From an uncultured virus (IMG/VR IMGVR_UViG_3300042350_001000) (lineage: Duplodnaviria; Heunggongvirae; Uroviricota; Caudoviricetes), in IMG/VR virus record IMGVR_UViG_3300042350_001000: a stretch of DNA of 20,000 nt. One strand, given 5' to 3'. Shown piece by piece: positions 6,268-18,935 of the stretch. Positions within the stretch are counted from its first letter, which is position 1. Each line of letters begins with the position of its first letter. The position numbers were made by a program, and so were the translations under genes. Under the pieces are notes generated by a model. That model made no database searches and was not told the DNA's origin. It saw only the letters and a program-made list of their open reading frames with translations.

Positions 6268-7033
6268 GGGGCTAGGCGACCGCCTGCAATGCCTATCTTA
6301 CTGCCTGGATTTCGCGCTCAAGCATAACCGCATACTCAAGGTTAACTGGCGCGACAAGGTGTGGGGCCACTGGTTTTATTCTTACTTCCACCTCGTGGAT
6401 GTCCCGTATACGGATGAAAAAATATCGCTTACCGGCAAGTCAGTATGGCCACCTATCTGGGAGGCTTTGGGCGATAAAAGCTCAGACGACTGGGTATATG
6501 ACATCAAGGAGGAAAAGCTTTCGCCAAGCGCTTATGACGTGATCGTGCACTCTGGTATTGGCTTCAGGGTTTGGAACATGCCACTGCTTTCAAGGCACCT
6601 ACGGGTCAGTTTTGAGATTGCAAACAAAGTCAAAAAGCATGACGTAGTTGTGCATTTGCGAGGGACCGACCGATACAACGAAGGATCAAGCCTGTTTGAT
6701 CTTTACGGCGAATCGGGCGACGCTTATGTCATAACCGATGACGCAAGACTTGCCCAGCAATGGGCCGAAATCAGCCCAGAATCGACGATCTCATGCGTAG
6801 GCATAGAAGGACATCGACCGGTCCACAAAACAAATCCAGAGAATACTTATGACCGCAATTCGAAAGCTATTGTTGACTTCATGACGATTGCCATAGCAGG
6901 CGAGGCTTATTCCAACAACCCGGAGAGCTTGTTCTTCAAAATGGCAAGGAGCCTTGGAACCCCGGAGCTTATGCTTACGCCCGCTCCGGAGGAAAAGACC
7001 AAGAGGGTCCGATACTTTATTCGGGGAGCGTGA
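6236..7033 (+). CDS. Glycosyltransferase of the alpha-1,2/1,6/O-fucosyltransferase superfamily (NodZ/GT23- or GT11-like), 265 aa
   Basis: N-terminal EGLGDRL...FALKHNRILKVNW, motif I VHLRGTD, motif II YVITDD, motif III DFMTIA...SLF; AAGGAG RBS. Confidence 0.72.
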   Translation: MEKYVISNGYEGLGDRLQCLSYCLDFALKHNRILKVNWRDKVWGHWFYSYFHLVDVPYTDEKISLTGKSVWPPIWEALGDKSSDDWVYDIKEEKLSPSAYDVIVHSGIGFRVWNMPLLSRHLRVSFEIANKVKKHDVVVHLRGTDRYNEGSSLFDLYGESGDAYVITDDARLAQQWAEISPESTISCVGIEGHRPVHKTNPENTYDRNSKAIVDFMTIAIAGEAYSNNPESLFFKMARSLGTPELMLTPAPEEKTKRVRYFIRGA

Positions 7034-8270
7034 TTGTCCGCTGGGGCTTATAGCGATCGTAAAGGTCAGTCAGAAACGGAACCGCCGCGGTCGTTGCAAG
7101 CCCAACCCCTCGCGTTAAGGGGTGGGGCACCAAGCCTGCAACGCCACCAAGGGCGCCGATCGCACTTAAAGCTGCGCCGGGCATATCGCCTTGCATGTAC
7201 CGGTCATAGGCGTCATAGGCCGAATAGCCTGCTCCTGCGCCGCCTAGAGTGCCTAATGCCGAGCCTTTGAATAACCCTGTCATCCTGCCGCCGGGACGCT
7301 CTACACGCTCAACGGGCAAGCCTTGACGAACCTCTCCCACGACGGGAGCATTCTTGGCGCGATCAATAAGCCGCTGGGAAAGCTGAGGGGACTCGTCAGG
7401 ACCCGCAATCCCGTAAAGCTTGGCCATCCTTCCTGAGATTCTACCTTGAGGCATAGCCCTTCGGTAATCGGTAGCTGCCTCAGAGACGGTTCCGACTCCA
7501 GGCTTTACATAGCCCGTGACCTTGCTGGCCCACTTTTCACCGGGGGTCATGCCTTGGGTTAGCTTTGCGAGATTCTGGTCCCTAGCGGCCCTCTGAGCCT
7601 CTTGGAAGGCATCAAAGCGCCTTTGCTGCATGCCACGCCTAAGATCCGCTCCAGCGCCGCTTAAAAGGGCTCCAGCAGGCGCTCCTACCGCGGCAGACAT
7701 GGCACGGCCAATGGCAGGGTCGTCGGGTTGATTGATCTGCATTTGATCGATCTGTTGGGCCAGCCTTCTTGCTTCAAGAGCCGCTTCGCTTTCGGCAGGT
7801 TCGCCTTCTTGGCTTGGCTGCGCGGCCGGTATGACACCGCCTTCAAGCTGCATCTTAAGCCTTCGTGCTTGGCCAACAGCGTCGAACGGATAAATCGCAT
7901 TGACTTGGTCGGCATAGTCCATGTTGGGCGGGTTGTCCATCTTGGCAAACCTTGGTCCGCCGTTATAACCGACCAAAGCTTTTCGGACGTCGCCGCCAGT
8001 AAGGTCGAGCATTTCCTTGAGGTACATGACCCCGCCACGGATGTTGTCGTCCATTTTCTTTGGGTTCACGCCTAGACCCTTAGCGGTGGCAGGCATAAGC
8101 TGCATGACGCCAATAGCGCCCTTATTGCTTTTCTGGGCCTGGGAGAATCCAGACTCGACTTGAGCAACAGCAAGGGCTAGTTGCGGATCAACGCCCTCCT
8201 GCTCAGCGGCCTTGATGACTTTATCGGCTATACGACGCTGGGACTCGTTAAGCTTTTCAAGATCGACCAT
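7017..8270 (-). CDS. Virion-associated lytic transglycosylase (SLT domain), probable ejection protein, 417 aa
   Basis: AQVESGF, GAIGVMQLMPATA, NIRGGVMYL and ALVGYNGG SLT motifs; Gly/Ala-rich hydrophobic C-terminus. Confidence 0.88.
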   Translation of the reverse strand: MVDLEKLNESQRRIADKVIKAAEQEGVDPQLALAVAQVESGFSQAQKSNKGAIGVMQLMPATAKGLGVNPKKMDDNIRGGVMYLKEMLDLTGGDVRKALVGYNGGPRFAKMDNPPNMDYADQVNAIYPFDAVGQARRLKMQLEGGVIPAAQPSQEGEPAESEAALEARRLAQQIDQMQINQPDDPAIGRAMSAAVGAPAGALLSGAGADLRRGMQQRRFDAFQEAQRAARDQNLAKLTQGMTPGEKWASKVTGYVKPGVGTVSEAATDYRRAMPQGRISGRMAKLYGIAGPDESPQLSQRLIDRAKNAPVVGEVRQGLPVERVERPGGRMTGLFKGSALGTLGGAGAGYSAYDAYDRYMQGDMPGAALSAIGALGGVAGLVPHPLTRGVGLATTAAVPFLTDLYDRYKPQRTITLPE

Positions 8271-10058
8271 TTAGACCCCCGCCACTTTTCTAGCCTCAGC
8301 AAGCTTACCCCTCATTTCCGGGAAGAACTCGCGCATCGAGCCATCGAGTGCATTGACGTAATTTGCACGAATGCGCTTGTACTCATCCGAGTCGTACATT
8401 TGCCTTGGGTCGTACTGCTTGGCCTCGGAGCGCCTTCTCAAAAGGTCCCCAACCTGCTTGTCGAACTTGGCCATTTCTTGAAGGGCCAGGGTCTTCACAA
8501 GGTAGGCCTTGATCGGATCATTGGAAAGGCTTGGTAAAAGCTGGCCAAACAAGACACGCTCGTAGTTCGATACTTGACCCTCGCCCTTGCGCTCTGCCTT
8601 ATTCAGCAGAGAATCTAGCCTACGCTCAGATTGCAAGAGCAATGACGCTGCATCCAAGCCTTGCTGTTGCAAGTATTTTTGAGCTTCATCGTTTGAAATC
8701 CCGCGCTCTTTTGCAACCCTGGCGACCATTTCAGGATTGGCTCGTACCAACCGCCTCATGCCGTCCTCAAAGCCTCCGATGGTGACGTTCGTGCCACCAA
8801 CACGGATGCCCTCCTTAATGAATTGCGCAAGGGCATACTGACCTCCAGGCTTATTGAAGATCCCAACCGCATAGGGATATGCCGAGGCCAGTTGCATCAT
8901 TTGCTTGGCTTCTTGCTGGAGGGAATCAGCCTTGTCGTAACGAGTGAGAATCGGCCCACGAGCTTCCTTAACTTCCCCCGTTAGCATCGAGATATTCTCT
9001 TCGGTCTGCTTGGACTCTGCCTTTTGGCGCTGCTCCCTTTCGGACGCGGTCTCAAATGGTTTCCCGGCTCCTTGCGCAGGAGCGGCTTGCGCAGGTGCCT
9101 CTGAAGCTGGTTGCATAGCAGATTGCTGAGCAGGTGGCGAATCGAGCGGCCTTGGTGGCGCTATCGCCCCTATCCTCTCGCCAAGTCCTGGGATCTTGCC
9201 AACGATGAACTTAGCGGCCTCTGTCTGACCGCCCCTGTTCATAATCTCGTCGTACTTCATCCAGTCGCCAAGGGGCATCTTGATGTCGCCGCTAAAGTTG
9301 CCAAGGTTCAATTGGCGCTCAATTGGCTTGGCAAGTTCCGCGGGGTTATAAATTCGCTCACCGGTTCCCGGTACATAAAAAGATCCATCGCCTCCAGGCA
9401 AGAAGTTCTTGCGATAGTCTTCTCGAGCCTGCATAACTTGGTTATAAAGCTTTTCGCCAGCAGGGCCGAGCGGTCTTGTAATCGCTAAAAGCTGCTCGGG
9501 GTCCATGGCCATTAAACGACGCGCCTGCGGGTTACCAACCGCGGCTTCGGCAGAGGCGCCTGATCCAGGTGCGGCTTGCACATTAGCCCCAGGCGCCCCG
9601 ATGCCGAGCATGGTTGCAATTCGTTCAGCCTCTTCTTGTTGGGCCATAGCAAGACGATTAGCGGCCAGTTCGGTCCGCATCTTCATCATGGTAGGAAGAT
9701 TTTTCTCTTGCTCACCACGCTGCCTCGAGGCCTCTGCGCCTAAGTTTGCAAGAGCACTACCGATTGATCCAGTGCCGGTAGGCTGGCCAAAGGCGAAGAG
9801 CAGGCGGGATATGTCGTAGCCCTCGCCACTAATTCGGCGCTCGAGCGCGGTAATCATGTCTTGCGTGGCTTTTAGGTAGTCCTGCTTTGCAGCACCAAGA
9901 CCGCCGGGAGCGGCCTGCCCTAATCCACTTGGACGCGGAAAATTGACTGGAATCTGGAAATTGTCACTCTTGATCCCAGTGCCGCCACCGAGAGCGCCTT
10001 CCATGGTGTCCTCGCCCATCATGGCGCCTAATCCACCCATATTCATATCAAGGGCCAT
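8271..10058 (-). CDS. Probable internal virion / DNA ejection protein (595 aa)
   Basis: Helical, Ala/Gln/Gly-rich, no Cys; lies downstream of tail genes and next to the SLT gene; GGAG RBS. Confidence 0.65.
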   Translation of the reverse strand: MALDMNMGGLGAMMGEDTMEGALGGGTGIKSDNFQIPVNFPRPSGLGQAAPGGLGAAKQDYLKATQDMITALERRISGEGYDISRLLFAFGQPTGTGSIGSALANLGAEASRQRGEQEKNLPTMMKMRTELAANRLAMAQQEEAERIATMLGIGAPGANVQAAPGSGASAEAAVGNPQARRLMAMDPEQLLAITRPLGPAGEKLYNQVMQAREDYRKNFLPGGDGSFYVPGTGERIYNPAELAKPIERQLNLGNFSGDIKMPLGDWMKYDEIMNRGGQTEAAKFIVGKIPGLGERIGAIAPPRPLDSPPAQQSAMQPASEAPAQAAPAQGAGKPFETASEREQRQKAESKQTEENISMLTGEVKEARGPILTRYDKADSLQQEAKQMMQLASAYPYAVGIFNKPGGQYALAQFIKEGIRVGGTNVTIGGFEDGMRRLVRANPEMVARVAKERGISNDEAQKYLQQQGLDAASLLLQSERRLDSLLNKAERKGEGQVSNYERVLFGQLLPSLSNDPIKAYLVKTLALQEMAKFDKQVGDLLRRRSEAKQYDPRQMYDSDEYKRIRANYVNALDGSMREFFPEMRGKLAEARKVAGV

Positions 10059-10076: not shown

Positions 10077-11051
10077 TCAGCCACCTGGATTGCTGTTAAA
10101 CAATCTTCCAAGAGCGTCTACCGCCTTGGAGCCTGCGTTAATAATTCCTTCGATCGCCGATGCACCCGTGCCGCCAGTACCCGTTGGTGCAAACAAACCT
10201 GCAAGCGTACTGACCTGCTGCAATCCCGACGGGCTGTACTGAAGACCGGCAAGCGGACCTTCATAGGTCGACGAGGTGTCAGTAGGCATCGTGTAGCCCC
10301 TCATAAGACCTGAGACGGCCTGCGCAGTCTGCAAGGGGAAGTTCTCTTCACCCTGAGCGATCGCTTGCTGCTGGGCCCCTAATGAGGCCAGATTCTGCAA
10401 TTCTGCAATATTGGTACCGGATGCAATCTGACCGAGCGCACCCATGGCCTGAGCACCTTGCAAGTAACGGCCAAGATCACTCGATGCCAGCTTGGAAGCC
10501 ATATCATAGCCCTGGGACAAAGCACCGGACTGAGCACCGAGAATATCCCGAAGGGCCTCGCGTTTAGCAATACCTTCCTGCTGAAGACCGCGCTTGCCAC
10601 CAAATCCGCCAGTCCCAACGCCAAGGCCACCCATTCCAGGCATGGCCTCTTGCATTTGGCGCTGACCTAGTCGATTAATCTCCGACACGACGTCCTTGAT
10701 GTAGGGGTTCATATAACCCCCGCCCATCGTGGTCGTCTCGCCCGTTACAGGATCGGTGTAGTCATAGCCCTGCAATTGCTGAGCGGTTGTAGCACCACCG
10801 GCCTGACCAAACCTCGAGGCGGCGTCCAAGTATCCCTGGCCACCAAACATGCGATTCTTGGCTTCATCAAAGGCCGTGGTTTGCAGTTCTTGTTGCCCGG
10901 CGTATTGAGGGCCCTCGGTACCAAGAAAGCTCTCGCCAGCACTGCCAAGCTTCTTGAGGTAGTCGGTATAAAACCCAGGCGCCGTAGTCGACTGGGCTTG
11001 TTTGATATTGACGGGCGGTGGCGCTGAGCCTTGGGTCCAATCGAATGGCAT
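10077..11051 (-). CDS. Probable DNA pilot / ejection protein (324 aa)
   Basis: Gln/Gly/Ala-rich, with YMNPY...GGFGG.R motif typical of podovirus-type ejection proteins; GAGGT RBS. Confidence 0.65.
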   Translation of the reverse strand: MPFDWTQGSAPPPVNIKQAQSTTAPGFYTDYLKKLGSAGESFLGTEGPQYAGQQELQTTAFDEAKNRMFGGQGYLDAASRFGQAGGATTAQQLQGYDYTDPVTGETTTMGGGYMNPYIKDVVSEINRLGQRQMQEAMPGMGGLGVGTGGFGGKRGLQQEGIAKREALRDILGAQSGALSQGYDMASKLASSDLGRYLQGAQAMGALGQIASGTNIAELQNLASLGAQQQAIAQGEENFPLQTAQAVSGLMRGYTMPTDTSSTYEGPLAGLQYSPSGLQQVSTLAGLFAPTGTGGTGASAIEGIINAGSKAVDALGRLFNSNPGG

Positions 11052-11053
11052 GA

Positions 11054-14000
11054 TTACCTCGCGCTTTCTTTCAAGTATGCCAAGGGTGACTTAGCCTTTG
11101 GCGGAATTTTATTGACCGGTGCGGCACGCTTATGTTTACGGATTGCCTCACGCATCTTGTCGAGCTTTGCGGCGCCTTCCTTCGAAGAGCCGTCACCAAG
11201 TGCAGCAACAATATCGGCGTCCATCACATACTCGCCATCCGCTAACAGTGCGGGAATAAGGTCATCCTGACCGCCACCGGCACCGCCAACCGCATAACCC
11301 TGCATTCTCCTCGAATCCGGGGTGCCTGCAAAGCCATTGGTCTCGGCCATTTTCATCAATCCGCCCATGGCCTTTTGCTGGGGCTTTTCAGGTTGGCCGC
11401 CGGTCCTTGGCTGCTCACCCAAAAGCTCGTCAGCATCGACCTGCTCAAGCGCCCCCTTAACAGTCGTGGAGGGCTCCATCGCTCTTTGATCCTCTTCGGA
11501 TAAGTCGACCTTCGCGTTGGCAGCAATTTGCGAGATCAGCTTCTTGCTGATGCCCATCCTCATGAGGGTTTGTACCAAGCTCTCGGGGAGGTTGGAGATT
11601 GTCTTCTCTTTCATAACCGGCGCCGCCGCTAAAAAGGTTGGTGATAACGATGGGATGTTCTTAAAGCCTGCGTTGCCCGATACAGAGCCCGATGGGTAGT
11701 AACGACTTCCGCCGCCGCCATCTCCGGCGCCTCCTGAACCGCTACCAGACCCACTTCCGGAACCGCTGCCAGACCCCGATCCGCTGCCCGAACCGCTTCC
11801 TGAGCCCGATCCAGAGCCAGAGCCTGAACCGCTGCCCGACCCAGACCCACTTCCCGACCCTGAACCAGATCCGGAGCCAGACCCCGATCCGGAGCCGCTG
11901 CCGGAACCAGAGCCCGAACCTGATCCTGAACCCGAACCCGATCCTGAACCCGAACCCGATCCTGAACCCGAACCAGACCCACTACCTGAACCCGAACCAG
12001 ACCCACTACCTGAGCCCGATCCGGAGCCCGAACCGGAGCCCGAACCGGAGCCCGAACCGGAGCCCGAGCCACTGCCTGAACCCGAACCGGAACCAGAGCC
12101 TGAACCACTACCCGACCCGCTACCAGATCCACTACCTGAACCTGAGCCTGAACCAGAACCGCTGCCCGAGCCTGAGCCCGAACCGCTGCCCGAGCCCGAA
12201 CCACTTCCTGAACCACTTCCTGATCCAGAGCCCGACCCAGAGCCGCTACCAGTTCCTGTACCTGTATCTGTTCCAGTTCCCTCAGTCGGCTTTTCGGCTT
12301 CGCCGGTCTTAGTTTCACCAGCCTCGCCGGTCTTAGTTTCGCCGCCGGTTTCGGCATCGACCTTAACAGCGCCGTCCGTGCCGCCGGATGTAACTCCGCC
12401 GCTTCCGTCCGTAGCATCGCCACCCGCCGGACCGCCCGTTGGGGTACCTGTAGGACCGCCTGTCGGGGTACCCGTTGGGCCACCCGTTGGGGTACCTGTA
12501 GGACCGCCTGTCGGAGTGCCCGTTGGGTCACCTGTCGGGCTACCAGCAGTGCCGCCGCGAACGAGATTGCCGTCCTTGTCGAATGTAAACGAGCCGAGGA
12601 TGTTGTTAATCCTCTCGTCGCTAAGCCCACCAGCGCGACCAAGCTTAGCTATCTCGTTGCGATTGAAGACGGCGTTGGGATTATCGGCAAAGGTTTTGCC
12701 TACCGAAGCCTTTAAGGCGTCGTCAGACTGACCTGCAAGGTTTTGACCTTGCGGCTTTTGCGGACCCTCAACTTGACCTTGTTTCGCATCTTGATCCTGC
12801 TGAGATATGGGGCCGGTGATCTTTCCAATTTGGGCATCTATGCCACCGCTGCCCCCGCCACCTCCGCTACCACCACTACCGCCGCCACTACCGCCGCTTT
12901 CACCACCAGCGCCACCCTGTGAAGACAATCCGCCCTGGACTTGTTCACTGCTGGAGGTTTCCCCACCAGCAAGGCCGCCCCCAGGTTTTTCTGGGCCGGT
13001 GGTCTTTACCTCTTTTGGCTTCTCAATCCATGGGTAATCGTCAATCGGGACGTCTTCAAACTCCCGATATTTCGTAAACGGCCTGTCAACCACCGTGTCA
13101 GTGGCAAATTCGTTGTAAGGCGTGAAGGGGCGATCAGCCGTCTTGGTGAGGTCGAATTCGTTGTAAGACGTAAAGGGCTTATCAAGCTTTGTGGACGATA
13201 CGGTTAACGCTGGCGTCTTATCGGCATACAAGGGCTTGGTCTCATACTTTCCAATATCCTTTTGGAAGTCCTTGATGTAAGCCTGCTTATCAGCCTCGGT
13301 CCAATCAGAAACCGGTTTATTCGCATAATCAGGGACCGTGGTTGCGTAGTCCATAGTCCACGGAATATCAGCGCCAGGATTTTGTGCTTTTTGAAGGGCG
13401 GACCACAAGGCCGCGCCATGCGCACCAAGCACACTAGCGGCCGCTATACCTTGCTGAATGGCTGGTATCCCAAGAAGCGGGAGCGCAGCAACCTGCTCCC
13501 CTTTGGTTAAATCCAAGCCGCCTGCAAGGTCCAAGCCGCCAGCGCTTGCAATACTCGAAGCAAGATCCGAAGATATATCCGGATTGACATCGGAAGCCAA
13601 AGACAGTCCACCGGTCGCAGGAATTTGCGTCCCAGGCCCGCCAGTGACGTTGTACTCGTCAATAATATTTCGGCCTCCCATTGCGGAAGCCACGCCCTTC
13701 ATTCCGGCGGCAATAATGTCATAGGGGTTATCAGACTTTGCCGCGGTATAGGCCACGTTAAGTGCAGACCTAACGATCCCTGGATCAAGATTTAGCGAAG
13801 AAGCAATATTCCCAGCAGCCATATCGAGGCCGGTGCTTACCCCGTAGGAGGTAACGGCATTTTTGATAAGACTTTCTACATCGGCGCCGCCCATGGCTCG
13901 TAAGGCTGTCGATATACCTGCCGCTTGCAAGGGAGACAAACCGAGACCCGCTGCGCCACCGGTGACGACCATGGCGCCAAAATTAAGCAAGGGAGCGATT

Positions 14001-14785
14001 GACTTTTGAAACGAGCCTCGTTGATCTTGGCGAAGCTGAACGTCCAAAATGTTGCCGTCCTTGTCGACCGTAACCTCCTGGCCAAGGAGCGTCCCCTTGT
14101 TGCCGATGTCATGGGCATTCAGAAAGGCCGAATAGGTACCCGTATCTTCATAGATCGGATTGCCTTCGTTATCGGTGCCGACCTGCTTTCTTATCGGCGA
14201 AAATACCGAAGATGAGGTGGGCATAAGACCGCCCTCGCCCTCAAAGTAAGTCGGGTTTAGTGCGCTGTTAAGCTGGGTTGCAAGGTCCCCGGAAATGGTT
14301 TTACCAATCAACCCTTGGCCTTGCGCATAAAGTTGGTTGGCTATGTTTTGTGCATTAGCCGCATTGGTTGCGTCTTTGTTATACCCAAGGGCAAGCTGGT
14401 CAACCCCTACAAGATTTTGCATACCCGGAATGGTTGAGCCAGCAACAGAAAGCCCTCCCGATACCGTATCCTGACCAAGCGTTCTATTGGCCACCTCCCC
14501 AAGAACGTCCTGGGTTATGCTCGACAGTCCGCCAGCAGTCGAAGTATCAGGCTGTGAGACCGGAGCTAGTCCACCGGTCGGCTCTTTATAGGTGAGCCCA
14601 GCATTGCCGAAGTAACTGGAAACGTCGCCAGCCGTAAGGTTTGGGTTAACTGTTTGTGCAGCCCTCAAAATATCTGCTGAAGACAGCCCAAGCTCCTGAC
14701 CGCGGGTGGCCACCACGTTCGGATCATTAAGGTTGGCAAGAATGAACTCGCCTGCTTGTCTGTACTGGTCTTCAGTAAAGGCCAT
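11054..14785 (-). CDS. Large low-complexity virion-module protein (1243 aa) with (Gly-Ser)86 tract and C-terminal [17 protein letters not shown] domain
   Basis: Uninterrupted ORF; the C-terminal D.IPA.L.DGEYV..AD.V motif is familiar from phage virion proteins; sits between tail and ejection genes. Confidence 0.75.
11735..12250 (-). repeat. 516-bp degenerate hexamer repeat encoding (Gly-Ser)86
   Basis: 172 alternating Gly/Ser codons using all four Gly and all six Ser codons. Confidence 0.95.
12424..12545 (-). repeat. Repeat encoding (GGPTGTPT)n
   Basis: [74 protein letters not shown] is duplicated 48 bp apart. Confidence 0.85.
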
Positions 14786-14786
14786 G

Positions 14787-15017
14787 TCAGTTCACCGCGT
14801 TATTGAAAGCGAAGGCCCAATCTTGCCATCGGTCGAACCCGTGCGGGGTCGGTACGCCATAGTTTGAGAACAAAGCGATCGAGCAGATCGAAAGCGCAAA
14901 GTCCTTCCAGTTCTCTTCGGGTACCGGCCACATAAGCTGCTGGGCCTCGTACTTTTCCGCGATGAGCGCGTTCCAGTAGGACCATTCCATGTTTCGGGGG
15001 TCGTAGATCTGCGTCAT
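14787..15017 (-). CDS. Small Trp-rich hypothetical protein in the tail module (76 aa)
   Basis: ATGA overlap with the upstream tail gene; ends 1 nt before the next start. Confidence 0.8.
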   Translation of the reverse strand: MTQIYDPRNMEWSYWNALIAEKYEAQQLMWPVPEENWKDFALSICSIALFSNYGVPTPHGFDRWQDWAFAFNNAVN

Positions 15018-17101
15018 GGCGTGTAACCCCTGACATCGCCCATGTCGAGCGACAAGAGAATGCGGCCCATTTGATAGTCCCCGCCGATGATATTGGACTC
15101 AAACTTGAGCCTCAGTTCCCGGCGCTGCTCTTTTAAGTCGATCTTAGTCGTGTTTGCATCAAACGTATAAGGGCCGGTTGTAACGTCGGCTGCCTGCGCG
15201 TAAGGACGCCCAATGATGTACATGGTCATCTCTTGGTCTTGCAGGAAGTCAGGCTCCACGCGCTCTAGGCGGGACCAGAAATTGTCACCGATCGGAACCT
15301 CTTGCGCAGGGTTGCCAGTCACCCAGGACAGGTCGTGCGTCGTGAAATATGAGTCGATGGCAGATACCGAAGGACCGTCCACAACATCCACGCCGACCTC
15401 ATGCTGCCAAAGCTTGGTATAGCCGCCGCCAATATCTTCGGTGCCTCCGGCGACCGGATACTTGAAAACCTGGGAGAAGTAGCCCGAGGAGCGTTGAGCA
15501 TGAATGCTTTGGCCTGCGTCGTACCACGTCTTTTCGCGGACGTTGTAAATAATCGCATCGGTACATTCGGTGGCCGATCCTCGAGGGTAGAACCACCAGA
15601 TCTCGCCATAGCGAGGCACCTTCCAGGCCCAAACCTTCTGCCGCTGGGTGTAGTTCAGATTGTCGAAGAACCAGTTTTGGTTCATCGGGTTCGGGATCTC
15701 TTGGACGACGCCGTTATACATCAAGAAGCGATCAACCCCGCACCAGTAATAAATCCCGTCGTACTCGATAACACCCGAAGACGATAGGATCGAAGACTGC
15801 GAAGTAATAATGTCGTAGCGCCAGTAATCCGGAGCACCGATATAAGAGACGCGAATCAGCGAATCAAGCGACCAAAATAAGCCGGAGGGAGCGTTCGTAC
15901 CGCCTCGCACCGGAAGGCCCTTGACGATCTTGCCCGTAGCGACGTTGACCTCGTTGGCGTCGGCTGAGTTCCAGTCCAGGGGATTCCCCTTGGAATTGTT
16001 CTTAATCAGGCCCGAGTTGCCGTAAACGAAGATGTACGGATGAAGAGCGACAACGCCACCAGAGACCGAGACGATGTCACCCGTCGGATCAGGGCCGCTA
16101 ACGTCGCGAAGCTCGGTCAATGTCGTCCCGGTAATCGCGCCATAAAGCACTGGCGTGTTGGTTGTCGAGTCGACCTGCGCCAGATTCTGCCCTGGGTGGA
16201 CTAAAAGCTGATTTACACCACCCTGCGAATCGTAAGAAGAGTCGAATTGATAAACATTATTGGCGCTTGCAGTGAAAACCGAACTAATAGTCGCAACTTG
16301 GATGCTAAATGGCGTTGTTACAGTCCCGCCAAGGTTCGTGGCACTCGCCGAAAGCGAATTTCCGACCGTATAACCGACGCCTGATTGCGTATAAGCGACC
16401 GTAATGGTCGAAACTGGCACTGAAAAGCCTGAGCCAGTGCCGCCAAGATTGGCCGTGGTAGCTGAAAGCACGTCACCAGGGGTGTATCCGGCGCCTAAAT
16501 CGGTTAAAGCGACCGCTGTGACCGCCCCGCCGGAGATTGTGACCGTCGCAATGGCTCCTGAACCGAGGCCTCCAGTAAGAGGAACGTCGGTATAAGTGCC
16601 GTTTGTGTATGCAGATCCGCCCGTAATGGTTCCGAGCGTCAAAATCGGGCCGGTTGTTGTAATAACGACTGACGTTACGGACCCGCCAGCGATCGTGATG
16701 TTGCAATAAAGGCCGGTTCCGGTACCTCCGGTCATGGCCACGCCGTTATAGGTGCCGTTGGTATAACCCGTACCGCCTACAAGCGTTCCAAGCGTTGCTG
16801 CCGGTCCCGTAAAGGTGAAATTAGAGACGCCAGCACCGACGCCGTTGTTATCGACGCCAATAACCTGAATGCCTGAAGCGTAGGACGTAAAGATGTTGTT
16901 AATGCCGTTGCTGGAATCAACGAACATCCCTCGAGTCGGGCCATAGATCTGATTGGAGATCCGCTTAACGCCAAGGACTTTTCTAGGCCGTCCGCGCTGA
17001 AAGCGTACCCATAAGCCATCAGAGTATTGATCCCCGTCCAAAACGGTACCGTCCCGGCGTATCCCAGGCTGGGTATTGATCGTAATGACTTTTTCAGTCA
17101 T
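15014..17101 (-). CDS. Probable tail nozzle / tail tubular protein B-like (P22 gp10-type), 695 aa, with inserted Gly/Thr-rich repeat domains
   Basis: WVRFQRGRPRK N-terminus, beta-propeller-like aromatic pattern, EIWWFYP...IIYN...W motif; size and position downstream of the adaptor fit. Confidence 0.72.
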   Translation of the reverse strand: MTEKVITINTQPGIRRDGTVLDGDQYSDGLWVRFQRGRPRKVLGVKRISNQIYGPTRGMFVDSSNGINNIFTSYASGIQVIGVDNNGVGAGVSNFTFTGPAATLGTLVGGTGYTNGTYNGVAMTGGTGTGLYCNITIAGGSVTSVVITTTGPILTLGTITGGSAYTNGTYTDVPLTGGLGSGAIATVTISGGAVTAVALTDLGAGYTPGDVLSATTANLGGTGSGFSVPVSTITVAYTQSGVGYTVGNSLSASATNLGGTVTTPFSIQVATISSVFTASANNVYQFDSSYDSQGGVNQLLVHPGQNLAQVDSTTNTPVLYGAITGTTLTELRDVSGPDPTGDIVSVSGGVVALHPYIFVYGNSGLIKNNSKGNPLDWNSADANEVNVATGKIVKGLPVRGGTNAPSGLFWSLDSLIRVSYIGAPDYWRYDIITSQSSILSSSGVIEYDGIYYWCGVDRFLMYNGVVQEIPNPMNQNWFFDNLNYTQRQKVWAWKVPRYGEIWWFYPRGSATECTDAIIYNVREKTWYDAGQSIHAQRSSGYFSQVFKYPVAGGTEDIGGGYTKLWQHEVGVDVVDGPSVSAIDSYFTTHDLSWVTGNPAQEVPIGDNFWSRLERVEPDFLQDQEMTMYIIGRPYAQAADVTTGPYTFDANTTKIDLKEQRRELRLKFESNIIGGDYQMGRILLSLDMGDVRGYTP

Positions 17102-18309
17102 TAAAACGCACCTCCAGCCAATCCATCGGTTGTTAGTAGCATCTTGGCTGTGCCGCCAATAGACATACCAATAGCCGAGCCGCCGGTTGGCCGGTACATG
17201 CCAGTATTGGTCTCATTAGTAAAGTTCAAAGCCGGAGACGCAGCAGACCCATCAATGATTGAGATCGCAGATCCACCGGTAATAACCGTGGTTGCGTTCA
17301 AGACATTAACGGAGTCGCAAACCAACGTGGCTTGTTGAGAAGCCGCCAACGAGGAATTAGTACCGCCTCCGACGTTAGTCGTGAAAATGACGTTTGCCGT
17401 TCCCGATGTTTGATTTAAGGCAAAGTAAACCTGAACCGCAGCAGGAAGGACGACCGTCACGTTACTGTTAATCGAGGTCCCTGTGACCTTGATGATCGTG
17501 TTTTGGGCCTGGGCCGGTGTAAGCGTGTAGGTTGATCCCGAAGTAACCGGAAGGGTTAATTGAGAGTACGCAAATGTCGTTTCCTGGCCAAGCCCAACGG
17601 TATAAAACGCGGTACCCGAGCAGCAGATAAAAGCCGAGTCTCCAATCTGCAAGGCAAGGCTTGCCGAACCATTGATGAGTTCAGAGCTATTAGGGTCAAT
17701 GGTCAGCAACCCGGTTCCGCCGTTGCGGATCATCATGAACCAATCGTCACCGAGTGTTGCGGCCGCGGTAAGGTTAAGCGTGCCAACGCCGCCAGTCCAT
17801 ACTATTGCCTTGGCCCGATAGGTTGCGTCGGCAGTAAAGGTGCTGGTAACCGTTGCAACAGGGTGAGACTGGTTTAGCGTTGTTGTTATGGCTTTAAGGC
17901 CATACCCAGCAAGCGATGCGGCATCGGCCGAGCTTGATCCCACGCCAAAAGCAATAACGCCCCAGGTTCCAGCGGCTGTGGAATTATCCGTTACATAAAT
18001 GTATTTAGCCTCACCGGCGGCAACGGCTACGATGGTGTTACCAGCGTAGTCGCGGACCGTGAAAGTATTTGAGCCGGTGTTTCTAACAAGCGAGTCCGTG
18101 CCAACCGAAGTTTGATTGGCAGGCGGCATATATACCGACAGGCTTGTCGTTGATGCCGAGATCTGCATGACCCTGGCAGCGTAATCGCCAGCAGCATCAC
18201 CATCTTGCGGCCAAAACAGGACAAGGTTTGCCGATATGGAAAACGATTTATAACTGACGTCTGTCGGTTGGATGACGTCGCCCGTGAAAACACTAACGTA
18301 TGAGGTCAT
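17101..18309 (-). CDS. Tail-associated structural protein (402 aa, beta-rich; fibre/appendage-like)
   Basis: Thr/Ala/Gly-rich beta repeats; C-terminal DGSAASPALNFTNETNTGMYRP motif typical of fibre proteins. Confidence 0.65.
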   Translation of the reverse strand: MTSYVSVFTGDVIQPTDVSYKSFSISANLVLFWPQDGDAAGDYAARVMQISASTTSLSVYMPPANQTSVGTDSLVRNTGSNTFTVRDYAGNTIVAVAAGEAKYIYVTDNSTAAGTWGVIAFGVGSSSADAASLAGYGLKAITTTLNQSHPVATVTSTFTADATYRAKAIVWTGGVGTLNLTAAATLGDDWFMMIRNGGTGLLTIDPNSSELINGSASLALQIGDSAFICCSGTAFYTVGLGQETTFAYSQLTLPVTSGSTYTLTPAQAQNTIIKVTGTSINSNVTVVLPAAVQVYFALNQTSGTANVIFTTNVGGGTNSSLAASQQATLVCDSVNVLNATTVITGGSAISIIDGSAASPALNFTNETNTGMYRPTGGSAIGMSIGGTAKMLLTTDGLAGGAF

Positions 18310-18935
18310 ACTTCTTGCACCGTAGCAGATCGATCGATCGTGCGAGTATCGTTCTCAAGCTTGAGCGTCTGTATCGCACGGTCATACAGGGCTTGCCAAA
18401 GCTGAACTCGAGAATCGTTCTTCAAAAAGGGAATCGCTTGCAGGAGCGTGCCGTACAACATTGCCTGAGGCGCGTTGATCGTGAACCAGTTCGTTTGATT
18501 GGTTGCGTCTAGCGGTTGGATCTTCTCGTAGTAAAGGATCTCAATCGCATAATCATCGCTTGGCGTTGGCGCAATAAGCCAATGATCGAAGTCGTAGTCA
18601 CCATAGTATTTTGGCACGCCCTCTTGCGTTGGATCGGGCCAGTAATTGCGCATGTATTCATACTTACGAAGCAATAATGGGAAACGCTCCCCGGCCACCG
18701 TTACATTCATGGAGGTCGTTTTCCTCCAGCGGGTTGGCTTTTGAAGCGTTGGGTCACCCTGCACCAAGGTCGTGGAAACAGTTTGCTGCTGACCAAGGAT
18801 CTTTAGCTCGTCGGAGATAATCGACTCGGCGAGGTTGATAAAAGACGGGATCTGATTGATCGTCTGCGCGTCCGAGCGTTCCAGGTAGAGCGTGACATCC
18901 GCTACCAGGGACGTGTAGGTCATGGTGACAGCCAT
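18306..18935 (-). CDS. Head-tail adaptor / tail tubular protein A-like (209 aa)
   Basis: TY..L...V..YLER.D...IP.FI.LAE, P.YY...IAPTP...Y.IEILYY, TNW....PQAMLYG.L.QA.PFLKND.R pattern. Confidence 0.8.
   Translation of the reverse strand: MAVTMTYTSLVADVTLYLERSDAQTINQIPSFINLAESIISDELKILGQQQTVSTTLVQGDPTLQKPTRWRKTTSMNVTVAGERFPLLLRKYEYMRNYWPDPTQEGVPKYYGDYDFDHWLIAPTPSDDYAIEILYYEKIQPLDATNQTNWFTINAPQAMLYGTLLQAIPFLKNDSRVQLWQALYDRAIQTLKLENDTRTIDRSATVQEV

Follow-up and report, generated by a model that had tools for sequence, protein, structure and literature searches.

A natural Gly-Ser polymer of 86 units, conserved as a protein pattern, in a putative ejection protein of an uncultured lake phage

The stretch of DNA analysed here (20,000 nucleotides [nt], referred to as the window) belongs to the IMG/VR virus record IMGVR_UViG_3300042350_001000, a 30.6-kb sequence judged 56% complete, and it comes from an uncultured lake phage, podovirus-like and with a genome of about 58 kb. 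The minus strand of the window carries a gene for a protein of 1243 amino acids (aa), putatively an internal virion protein of the ejection type, in which a long tract of glycine alternating strictly with serine or threonine precedes a conserved C-terminal module. This gene is referred to as the tract gene, and the features of its product and of the surrounding genes are collected in Table 1.

The longest purely alternating Gly/Ser run is (Gly-Ser)86-Gly. A first-pass annotation of the same DNA had described 172 alternating Gly/Ser codons at 11735-12250; the alternation was confirmed, but the run comprises 173 residues and begins at 11732, and its coding strand, left unstated in that annotation, is the minus strand. 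With the two Gly-Thr units that open the tract, strict G-[S/T] alternation extends over 177 residues (842-1018; 531 nt, 11732-12262). All four Gly codons (GGT 35, GGC 26, GGA 16 and GGG 10 in the 173-residue run) and both families of Ser codons (TCG 25, TCA 18, TCT 15, TCC 9, AGC 10 and AGT 9) are used, as had been noted, and the codon entropy of the 177-residue tract is near its maximum for Gly (1.86 of 2.0 bits) and Ser (2.47 of 2.58 bits). Lys, Arg and aromatic or large hydrophobic residues are absent from it. Nested sub-repeats had been taken as the record of an expansion by slippage; the 18-nt and 12-nt tandem repeats are real, but they are local, and slippage explains these two patches only. 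Outside them the tract is non-repetitive at the DNA level. An exact alternation of 173 residues with near-maximal codon entropy, kept in seven distinct alleles, is beyond chance.

Table 1. Features of the tract gene, its product and neighbouring genes in the window
Feature	Position	Strand	Basis or remark
Tract gene, 1243 aa (P0001), putative internal virion/ejection-type protein	11054..14785	-	single open frame
Conserved C-terminal module, residues 1151-1243 (93)	11057..11335	-	invariant columns in 41-sequence alignment A1
Region between tract and conserved module, residues 1019-1150	11336..11731	-	conserved among close relatives only, 0/131 matches
(Gly-Ser)86-Gly tract, residues 846-1018	11732..12250	-	residue and codon counts; identical DNA in L003, L005
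Local 18-nt tandem repeat	11922..11975	.	2 exact copies and a third with last base changed
Local 12-nt tandem repeat	12021..12068	.	3 exact copies and a fourth with one mismatch
Two Gly-Thr units, residues 842-845	12251..12262	-	tract pattern T2S86
Pro-Thr-Gly octapeptide repeats, residues 748-779	12449..12544	-	sequence
Irregular Gly/Ser-rich stretch, residues 602-648, non-alternating	12842..12982	-	sequence
Three P-F-T-x-Y-x-E-F motif copies, residues 537-576	13058..13177	-	spaced 16 residues; conserved in relatives
Moderately hydrophobic Gly/Ala-rich segment, residues 432-464	13394..13492	-	Kyte-Doolittle mean <=1.52 per 19 residues
Moderately hydrophobic Gly/Ala-rich segment, residues 263-284	13934..13999	-	Kyte-Doolittle
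417-aa protein, N-terminal SLT lytic transglycosylase domain, last in block	7017..8270	-	PF01464, E 5.7e-21
595-aa protein, no family, between tract and SLT genes	8271..10058	-	position conserved in L001, L002
324-aa protein, no family, directly downstream of tract gene	10077..11051	-	position conserved in L001, L002
695-aa virion structural protein, upstream of tract gene	15014..17101	-	phrog_3287, E 1.3e-25
Tail adaptor protein	18306..18935	-	PF24175 SU10_adaptor, E 1.6e-28

A scan of IMG/VR matched 46 stretches, 23 of which encode a relative of the tract protein, in 18 distinct loci. A strict Gly-[Ser/Thr] tract lies at the same place in 13 of the 18 loci; among the others, the contigs of L012 and L017 stop before this place, while L018, L019 and L020 are distant relatives, the first two with a Thr/Asn/Gln-rich stretch in the tract's place and the third with a contig that ends after 963 residues. 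Full-length relatives are 95-100% identical to the tract protein, and those carrying blocks of Gly-Thr have flanks 84-97% identical. Seven distinct complete tract alleles were compared, written here as successive counts of Gly-Thr (T) and Gly-Ser (S) units: T2S86 (177 residues; window = L003 = L005); T1S73T5S14 (187 residues; L004); T2S51T27S2 (165 residues; L013 = L006); T1S1T50S6T33S2 (187 residues), which is encoded by two alleles of different DNA (L008 = L010 and L011 = L016); T1S1T36S4T26S3 (143 residues; L014); and the allele of L015, 162 residues in two parts of 89 and 73. The 7-residue insert that splits the tract of L015 is the sole interruption of the alternation in the seven alleles. 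Ser and Thr are exchanged in blocks between alleles, from S86 to T50-S6-T33. What the alleles conserve is the alternation of glycine and a hydroxyl residue for 143-187 residues, rather than Gly-Ser as such. The proposal that selection keeps a pure Gly-Ser chain of variable length was thus right as to selection on the amino-acid pattern and as to the variable length (143-187), but not as to purity, as Thr replaces Ser.

Between L008 and L011, 32 of the 184 fourfold sites in the tract differ, yet all of its 187 residues agree; their C-terminal flanks show 17 differences among 113 fourfold sites and 5 among 224 residues. Assuming that two-thirds of random mutations in GGN and ACN codons replace the residue, the probability of 32 consecutive silent changes is about 5e-16 by our own arithmetic. 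The window and L004, the one pair of tracts aligned with gaps, have 20 differences among 407 fourfold sites in one flank and 18 among 110 in the other; in a protein-guided alignment, 89 of 142 fourfold sites in the tract differ. The MAFFT alignment of these two tracts contains five gaps, all multiples of 6 nt (6, 6, 6, 30 and 18), and the aligned codons comprise 87 identical pairs, 63 third-position synonymous changes, 12 switches between the TCN and AGY codons of Ser and 7 Ser/Thr exchanges, with nothing else. It had been pointed out that TCN and AGY cannot be interconverted by one silent change; a silent route is not needed, however, since the path AGY-ACY-TCY runs through Thr, which the tract accepts, so that the 12 switches require no forbidden intermediate.

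The repetitiveness of the DNA was compared with synonymous shuffles. The longest exact repeat in the tract of the window is 35 nt, within the 18-nt repeat patch; for the shuffles the median is 18, the 95th percentile 23 and the maximum 35. In the tracts of L004, L013 and L014 it is 19-20 nt, against shuffle medians of 17-20; in L008 (32 nt) and the two parts of L015 (26 and 23 nt) it lies at or over the 95th percentile of the shuffles. At lags of 2-20 units, tract and shuffles hardly differ in codon identity (|z| <=2.6). At lag 1, identical neighbouring codons for the same residue are depleted: among the least related alleles (window, L013, L008 and L015) 122 of 681 neighbours are identical against 161.2 expected (sd 10.6, z -3.7), and 1 of 2000 shuffles was as low (P 0.0005); with all seven alleles included, 223 of 1192 are identical, where 282.4 would be expected (z -4.2). 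Identical neighbouring 6-mers showed no significant depletion (z -1.4 and -1.3). Perfect tandem units are removed either by selection or by deletion-biased slippage. Collectively, the many silent changes, the absence of any replacement other than Ser/Thr, the gaps in multiples of 6 nt and the depletion of identical neighbouring codons lead to the conclusion that selection acts on the protein pattern and not on the DNA. Strong purifying selection maintains the alternation, in which Ser and Thr can stand in for each other; lengths remain in the range of 143-187 residues, and repetition is avoided at the DNA level.

Three other ideas about the tract were considered and not retained. Gapped codon alignments of the tracts exceeded synonymous shuffles for window-L004 (z 9.1) and L008-L014 (z 7.1), while the tract of the window was no more similar to those of L013 or L008 than the shuffles were (z 1.4 and -0.2). 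A point-by-point conversion of Ser to Thr between alleles was not adopted, the tract DNA of the window having no alignable homology to that of L013 or L008 on which it could be traced. Adenine-directed mutagenesis of Thr codons by a diversity-generating retroelement would yield Pro and Ala besides Ser, and neither is seen. The plus strand has an open reading frame (ORF) at 11692-12312 (206 aa) that reads (Glu/Asp/Leu-Pro)n over the tract, and a second plus-strand frame is open too. An antisense reading of the tract was dismissed, as the minus frame is flanked by conserved protein and the plus frame is not conserved in the Gly-Thr alleles, which place NGT codons (Gly, Ser, Arg, Cys) where Glu, Asp or Leu would stand. 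The antisense frame is a by-product of the Gly/Ser codons.

The rest of the protein offers few named similarities. The whole 1243-aa sequence matched no PHROG and no Pfam family; the only Pfam signal was a sub-threshold match to the PT repeat (PF04886; 20.3 bits against a cut-off of 26.2) on residues 750-783, off the tract. A search of the ESM Atlas with residues 1-600 gave a best score of 0.87 and no named family, and a megablast of the whole window against phage records gave no match. The N-terminal part is mosaic: over the first ~100 residues (window 14500-14785), close relatives with near-identical middles have unrelated N-termini (L008, L013, L014 and L015), and the distant L018 and L019 have the first 94 residues of the window's protein in common. 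The P-F-T-x-Y-x-E-F motif may be a short linear binding motif. Hydrophobic segments like that at residues 432-464 also occur in the homologs P0002 and P0071. AlphaFold models reached a mean predicted local distance difference test score (pLDDT) of 57.7 for the C-terminal 225 residues (41-sequence alignment) and 35.3 for the N-terminal 600 (10 sequences); three short helices were modelled between tract and module (fragment residues 50-84, pLDDT 75-81).

The conserved C-terminal module is the part of the protein that is shared widely. In phmmer searches it matched 130 of 131 retrieved proteins, whereas the N-terminal 110 residues matched 3 of 131 and four middle segments none. Its invariant positions are G-x-G-x-G-Q-x-D, L, Y-V-x-D-A, V, L-G-x-G-S, G, L-D, R, R-x-H-K-R, I-P-P-x-A and Y. 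Among 1.84 billion cluster representatives it matched 5,906 at E<=1e-3 and 3,131 at E<=1e-10; carriers are 103-2000 residues long among the 150 matches listed, many of which were matched in two stretches, and a second copy of the motif is present in P0003, P0015, P0020 and P0104. The module stands at the far C-terminal end of its carriers: in 259 of 267 members, 53-111 residues (median 56) follow the last D-G-[E/D]-Y-[V/I] motif. No Pfam family covers the module, and its weak PHROG matches (E 1.1e-4 to 0.09, over ~30-70 residues) are to seven families of tape measures and two whose function is unknown. Possibly the module tags variable phage cargo for targeting or docking. Low complexity is common in the family: 35 of 123 proteins have an 80-residue segment below 2.5 bits, and ten low-complexity tracts that were inspected, most of them rich in Thr, closely precede the C-terminal domain. 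The Gly-Ser polymer is an extreme, regular form of this family-wide, hydroxyl-rich low-complexity spacer. Some carriers of the module also have GDSL lipase, chitin-binding or hemolysin-type calcium-binding domains.

The minus-strand gene order is endolysin, 133-aa protein, SU10-type adaptor, 402-aa protein, 695-aa protein, 76-aa protein, tract gene, 324-aa protein, 595-aa protein and the 417-aa SLT protein, which also matches phrog_342, 'internal virion protein with endolysin domain' (E 5.5e-18). This order is shared with Caulobacter phage RLK and the record MW202545 (L001 and L002), in which a homolog of 580 or 639 aa takes the place of the tract gene. A complete relative of 57.3 kb (G001) has portal, capsid, terminase and fibre genes, and its 29 structural-region ORFs include no match to a tail-tube, sheath or tape-measure PHROG (E<=1e-5). 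As described in PMC9509320, gp20-24 of SU10 are five ejection proteins, of which gp20 has transglycosylase activity. PMC8954989 describes ejection proteins as matched by size and synteny, fast-diverging, mosaic and partly unfolded on passing the portal, with sequence or fold similarity often absent within the class. The tract gene is part of an unbroken series of genes next to those of the tail, and this series includes a gene for a protein bearing a peptidoglycan hydrolase. The tract gene resembles the ejection genes of T7 (gp14/15/16), P22 (gp7/16/20) and SU10 (gp20-24) in having a tail-adjacent block with a transglycosylase protein, and its product resembles theirs, as far as these are covered in PMC8954989 and PMC9509320, in large size, fast divergence, mosaicism and segments of moderate, borderline hydrophobicity. 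The tract protein differs from them in that no sequence or fold similarity was found, and our literature search retrieved no ejection protein with a dipeptide polymer. Because of its gene position, and not its sequence, the tract protein is a candidate ejection protein; most likely it is an internal virion protein that the head contains and that leaves by way of the tail when the phage infects.

Given this position, the reading that we favour, with middling confidence, is that the tract may serve as a disordered, uncharged spacer or tether in a protein that would be injected. GS repeats are reported to behave as an ideal disordered chain, with R0 0.55 nm and a scaling exponent of 0.48 in the data taken from PMC10201532. 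From this scaling we calculated a relaxed end-to-end distance of ~6.5 nm for 173 residues and a contour length of ~62 nm. The earlier suggestion of a tether of about 60 nm across a cell envelope is therefore apt for the fully stretched contour only; relaxed, the chain would measure ~6.5 nm, and spanning would need stretching or confinement. In the mechanism that we propose, the tract would join the fast-evolving, mosaic N-terminal part, with its two hydrophobic Gly/Ala-rich segments, to the small C-terminal part, whose conserved 93-residue module would probably dock the protein in the particle or to partner proteins. The tract itself would be structureless and highly soluble, either relaxed (~6.5 nm) or pulled or confined to tens of nanometres, and since such a chain has no fold, it could pass the narrow portal and tail channel without unfolding.

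Several observations weigh against the spacer in an ejection protein. A plain linker needs neither exact alternation nor the exclusion of Ala, Pro, Asn or extra Gly, and residues 602-648 provide an example of an ordinary, irregular G/S linker in the same protein; the exactness points to a requirement that a simple spacer does not explain. Among 267 other family members there is no Gly-[Ser/Thr] run of at least 20 residues and no exact dipeptide repeat of at least 16, which indicates that the family does not need the exact-repeat form. As to ejection, the two Gly/Ala-rich segments have Kyte-Doolittle means of 1.4-1.5 and are borderline for membrane spans. PHROG and PDB sequence searches revealed no similarity to any characterised ejection protein, the PDB matches being at chance level, and the AlphaFold models were too weak for a fold search, so no fold link to ejection proteins was obtained. 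The literature search, which took in the Caulobacter phage paper, found no virion proteomics for any homolog, and for the cyanophage homologs it yielded no relevant paper.

The exact alternation and the Ser/Thr-only alphabet keep alive two kinds of rival, an ordered structure and a scaffold for modification, both already named in the first-pass annotation. In their common form, which we regard as doubtful though worth serious attention, the period-2 pattern of glycine and hydroxyl residue would itself be the functional requirement: an injected protein would carry a copolymer that forms a silk-like sheet or fibre or is densely modified, and the scrambling of codons would be kept to avoid a slippery DNA repeat.

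Taken separately, an ordered tract seems unlikely. It would stack a glycine face and a hydroxyl face as silk-like beta sheets, a beta-solenoid, a rod or a fibre, and would act as a rigid shaft or a self-associating element in the particle or after ejection. The exactness of the alternation in seven alleles fits such a structure, as does the absence of G-to-S changes, which are one transition away (GGY/AGY). Thr, which freely replaces Ser, generally favours beta strands, and periodic T/N-rich stretches stand at the same position in other family members. Weighed against this, it is GS repeats that serve in experiments as the standard of an ideal disordered chain, as presented in PMC10201532, and length varies by up to 44 residues between close relatives, which a spacer would accommodate more easily than a fitted element. 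A collagen-like or polyglycine-II arrangement was not indicated, the tract having a period of two and no glycine at every third position.

A scaffold for dense O-glycosylation or phosphorylation, with each Gly-flanked Ser or Thr as a sequon, appears quite improbable. Only hydroxyl residues alternate with Gly, and Ala and Pro, one step from Ser codons, are never seen; moreover, Ser-Asp repeats are glycosylated on almost every Ser, with protection from proteolysis, according to the account of them in PMC3794999. However, the 71 ORFs of G001 include no glycosyltransferase family (E<=0.001), and six-frame searches of five records (four complete genomes) with TIGR04414, PF00535, PF00534 and PF01075 found each in 0 of 5. 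There is no lineage-wide excess of [S/T]-G either: of 32 ORFs of at least 150 aa, a single one has z>=3 for [ST]G, and likewise a single one for G[ST]. An internal virion protein is also made in the cytoplasm, outside the general O-glycosylation systems of bacteria. A host enzyme or an unrecognised phage enzyme could still serve.

We consider it decidedly improbable that the tract is a slippery segment, resistant to gripping or proteases, that shields the injected protein or eases its passage through the channel rather than setting a distance. The lack of Lys, Arg, aromatic and large hydrophobic residues would suit this role, and one study is said to have found that substrate sequences may impair the grip of ClpX. 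Nevertheless, the exact alternation and the rough conservation of length are explained no better than by a spacer.

The reading in which the tract lacks a function of its own, having arisen by replication slippage and been tolerated in a low-complexity region that evolves fast, is already largely refuted, and we attach very little weight to it. Two local tandem repeats, the differing lengths of the alleles and the varied composition of low-complexity regions at this position across the family would agree with it. A recent slippage product should nonetheless be repetitive in its DNA, and a neutral one should gather replacements; what is observed is near-maximal codon entropy, a longest exact repeat of just 35 nt, depletion of identical neighbouring codons, and 32 synonymous differences without a replacement between L008 and L011.

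Mis-assembly had been named as an outcome that would overturn the tract. The 531-nt tract is 100% identical in three separate IMG/VR records (window, L003 and L005), although L003 differs from the window at 35 of the 734 N-terminal residues of the tract gene, and other alleles recur in independent records as well (L013 = L006, L008 = L010, L011 = L016). At least 93% of the sampled words of 11200-12800 are present in 19 lake-water runs under 19 study codes, which possibly stem from one campaign, and in four of the four runs whose Logan contigs were placed on the window these tile 11200-12800 with no mismatch within the tract. The Logan contigs break at 11927-12050, at the local repeats, and no single contig spans the tract; the runs are represented by short-read contigs only, and the exact length rests on the agreement between short-read assemblies. 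Related contigs also end in or near the tract (L009 inside it, L006 48 residues past it). The longest internal repeats (54 and 48 nt) are nevertheless shorter than ordinary read lengths, on our assumption as to read length, and the frame stays open with conserved protein on both flanks. Depth spikes at 11902-12063, due to short low-complexity contigs from other organisms, and three low-depth joints in run X12 (depth 2.2-4.8), probably due to related alleles, were not used as evidence. Mis-assembly of the tract is very unlikely, and that the tract or its length is an artefact of short-read metagenomic assembly is barely credible.

If the tract is a spacer, it would be a dipeptide-repeat spacer, a known design. 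Natural dipeptides of glycine and a hydroxyl residue exist as the Ser-Gly repeats of serglycin and the Thr-Gly repeats of Drosophila Period; these are eukaryotic and much shorter, those of serglycin carry glycosaminoglycans, and neither is related to the tract in sequence or context. The g3p protein of filamentous phages has natural Gly/Ser-rich linkers of similar composition. Our search of open-access literature and bioRxiv for Gly-Ser and Gly-Thr repeats returned nearly exclusively engineered linkers, plus serglycin, and no natural phage polymer. Engineered (Gly-Ser)n and (Gly4Ser)n linkers have the same composition and presumably form the same ideal, flexible, uncharged chain, to judge from what PMC10201532 reports; the tract differs from them in that it is natural, runs to ~86 units, is held by purifying selection and can be exchanged for Gly-Thr. 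The standard artificial flexible linker and ideal-chain reference is thus found as a natural 86-unit version that is held exact, together with a natural set of variants (blocks of Ser-to-Thr, 143-187 residues) open to direct comparison. The tract is also a clean case of repetition kept at the protein level apart from the DNA level, which bears on how low-complexity regions are maintained; if the alternation is required, it would be a natural counterpart to the codon scrambling that engineers apply to repetitive genes.

The closest likeness in design is to the Ser-Asp repeats (SDR) of the staphylococcal Clf/Sdr proteins. These comprise 25-275 units, are a proposed wall-spanning stalk and are glycosylated by SdgA/SdgB in the account of PMC3794999, and are disordered, highly extended chains in that of PMC9881980. 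In both cases a long, exact Ser dipeptide lies between a functional domain and an anchoring end; the partner residue differs (charged Asp, here Gly), the Clf/Sdr proteins are bacterial wall proteins with LPXTG, and there is no relation in sequence. The tract protein has no LPXTG in its sequence, and no glycosyltransferase family was found in the searches of the G001 ORFs and the five records; with no LPXTG, no transferase and a different partner residue, it falls outside the SDR family. The DNA of Ser-Asp repeats likewise mixes TCN and AGY codons for Ser.

Tail tape-measure proteins were also compared. The weak PHROG matches of the C-terminal module and the annotation of one Caulobacter phage homolog as a tape measure speak for a likeness, and an exit by way of the tail is assumed for both; the difference is that G001 has no tail-tube, sheath or tape-measure family among its 29 structural-region ORFs and that the adaptor is of the type of the short-tailed SU10. 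If the tract protein is an ejection protein, the length and chemistry of the tract would become testable variables for the way in which short-tailed phages bridge the envelope. The analysis also exposes a very widespread, unnamed C-terminal module that seems to tag highly variable phage proteins.

Some minor observations concern the relatives of the locus. In the homolog of MW202545 that is syntenic with the tract protein (L002:7282-9201), a Cys-rich low-complexity middle with many C-x-x-C-like spacings stands in the place of the Gly-Ser tract, and the C-terminal motif is present twice. No intact ORF comparable in size to the 402-aa gene of the window (17101-18309, minus strand) was called at the corresponding position of G001 (95% identical; L023:11864-13000), where the ORFs called have just 71 and 82 aa. 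Directly upstream, in the direction of transcription, of the portal gene of G001 (L024:11341-13818) lies a gene for a 1432-aa protein with an ART-PolyVal ADP-ribosyltransferase domain (L024:13806-18101, minus strand), which may be a second large packaged or injected protein, and the head block of the same genome encodes a GroES-like co-chaperonin (Cpn10, E 4.3e-08; L024:10601-11014, minus strand). Finally, a fibre-like protein of 735 aa in G001 (L023:16830-19034, minus strand) has three lectin-type Laminin_G_3 domains, one of which also matches the family of the clostridial neurotoxin receptor-binding N-domain, and is probably a receptor-binding protein.

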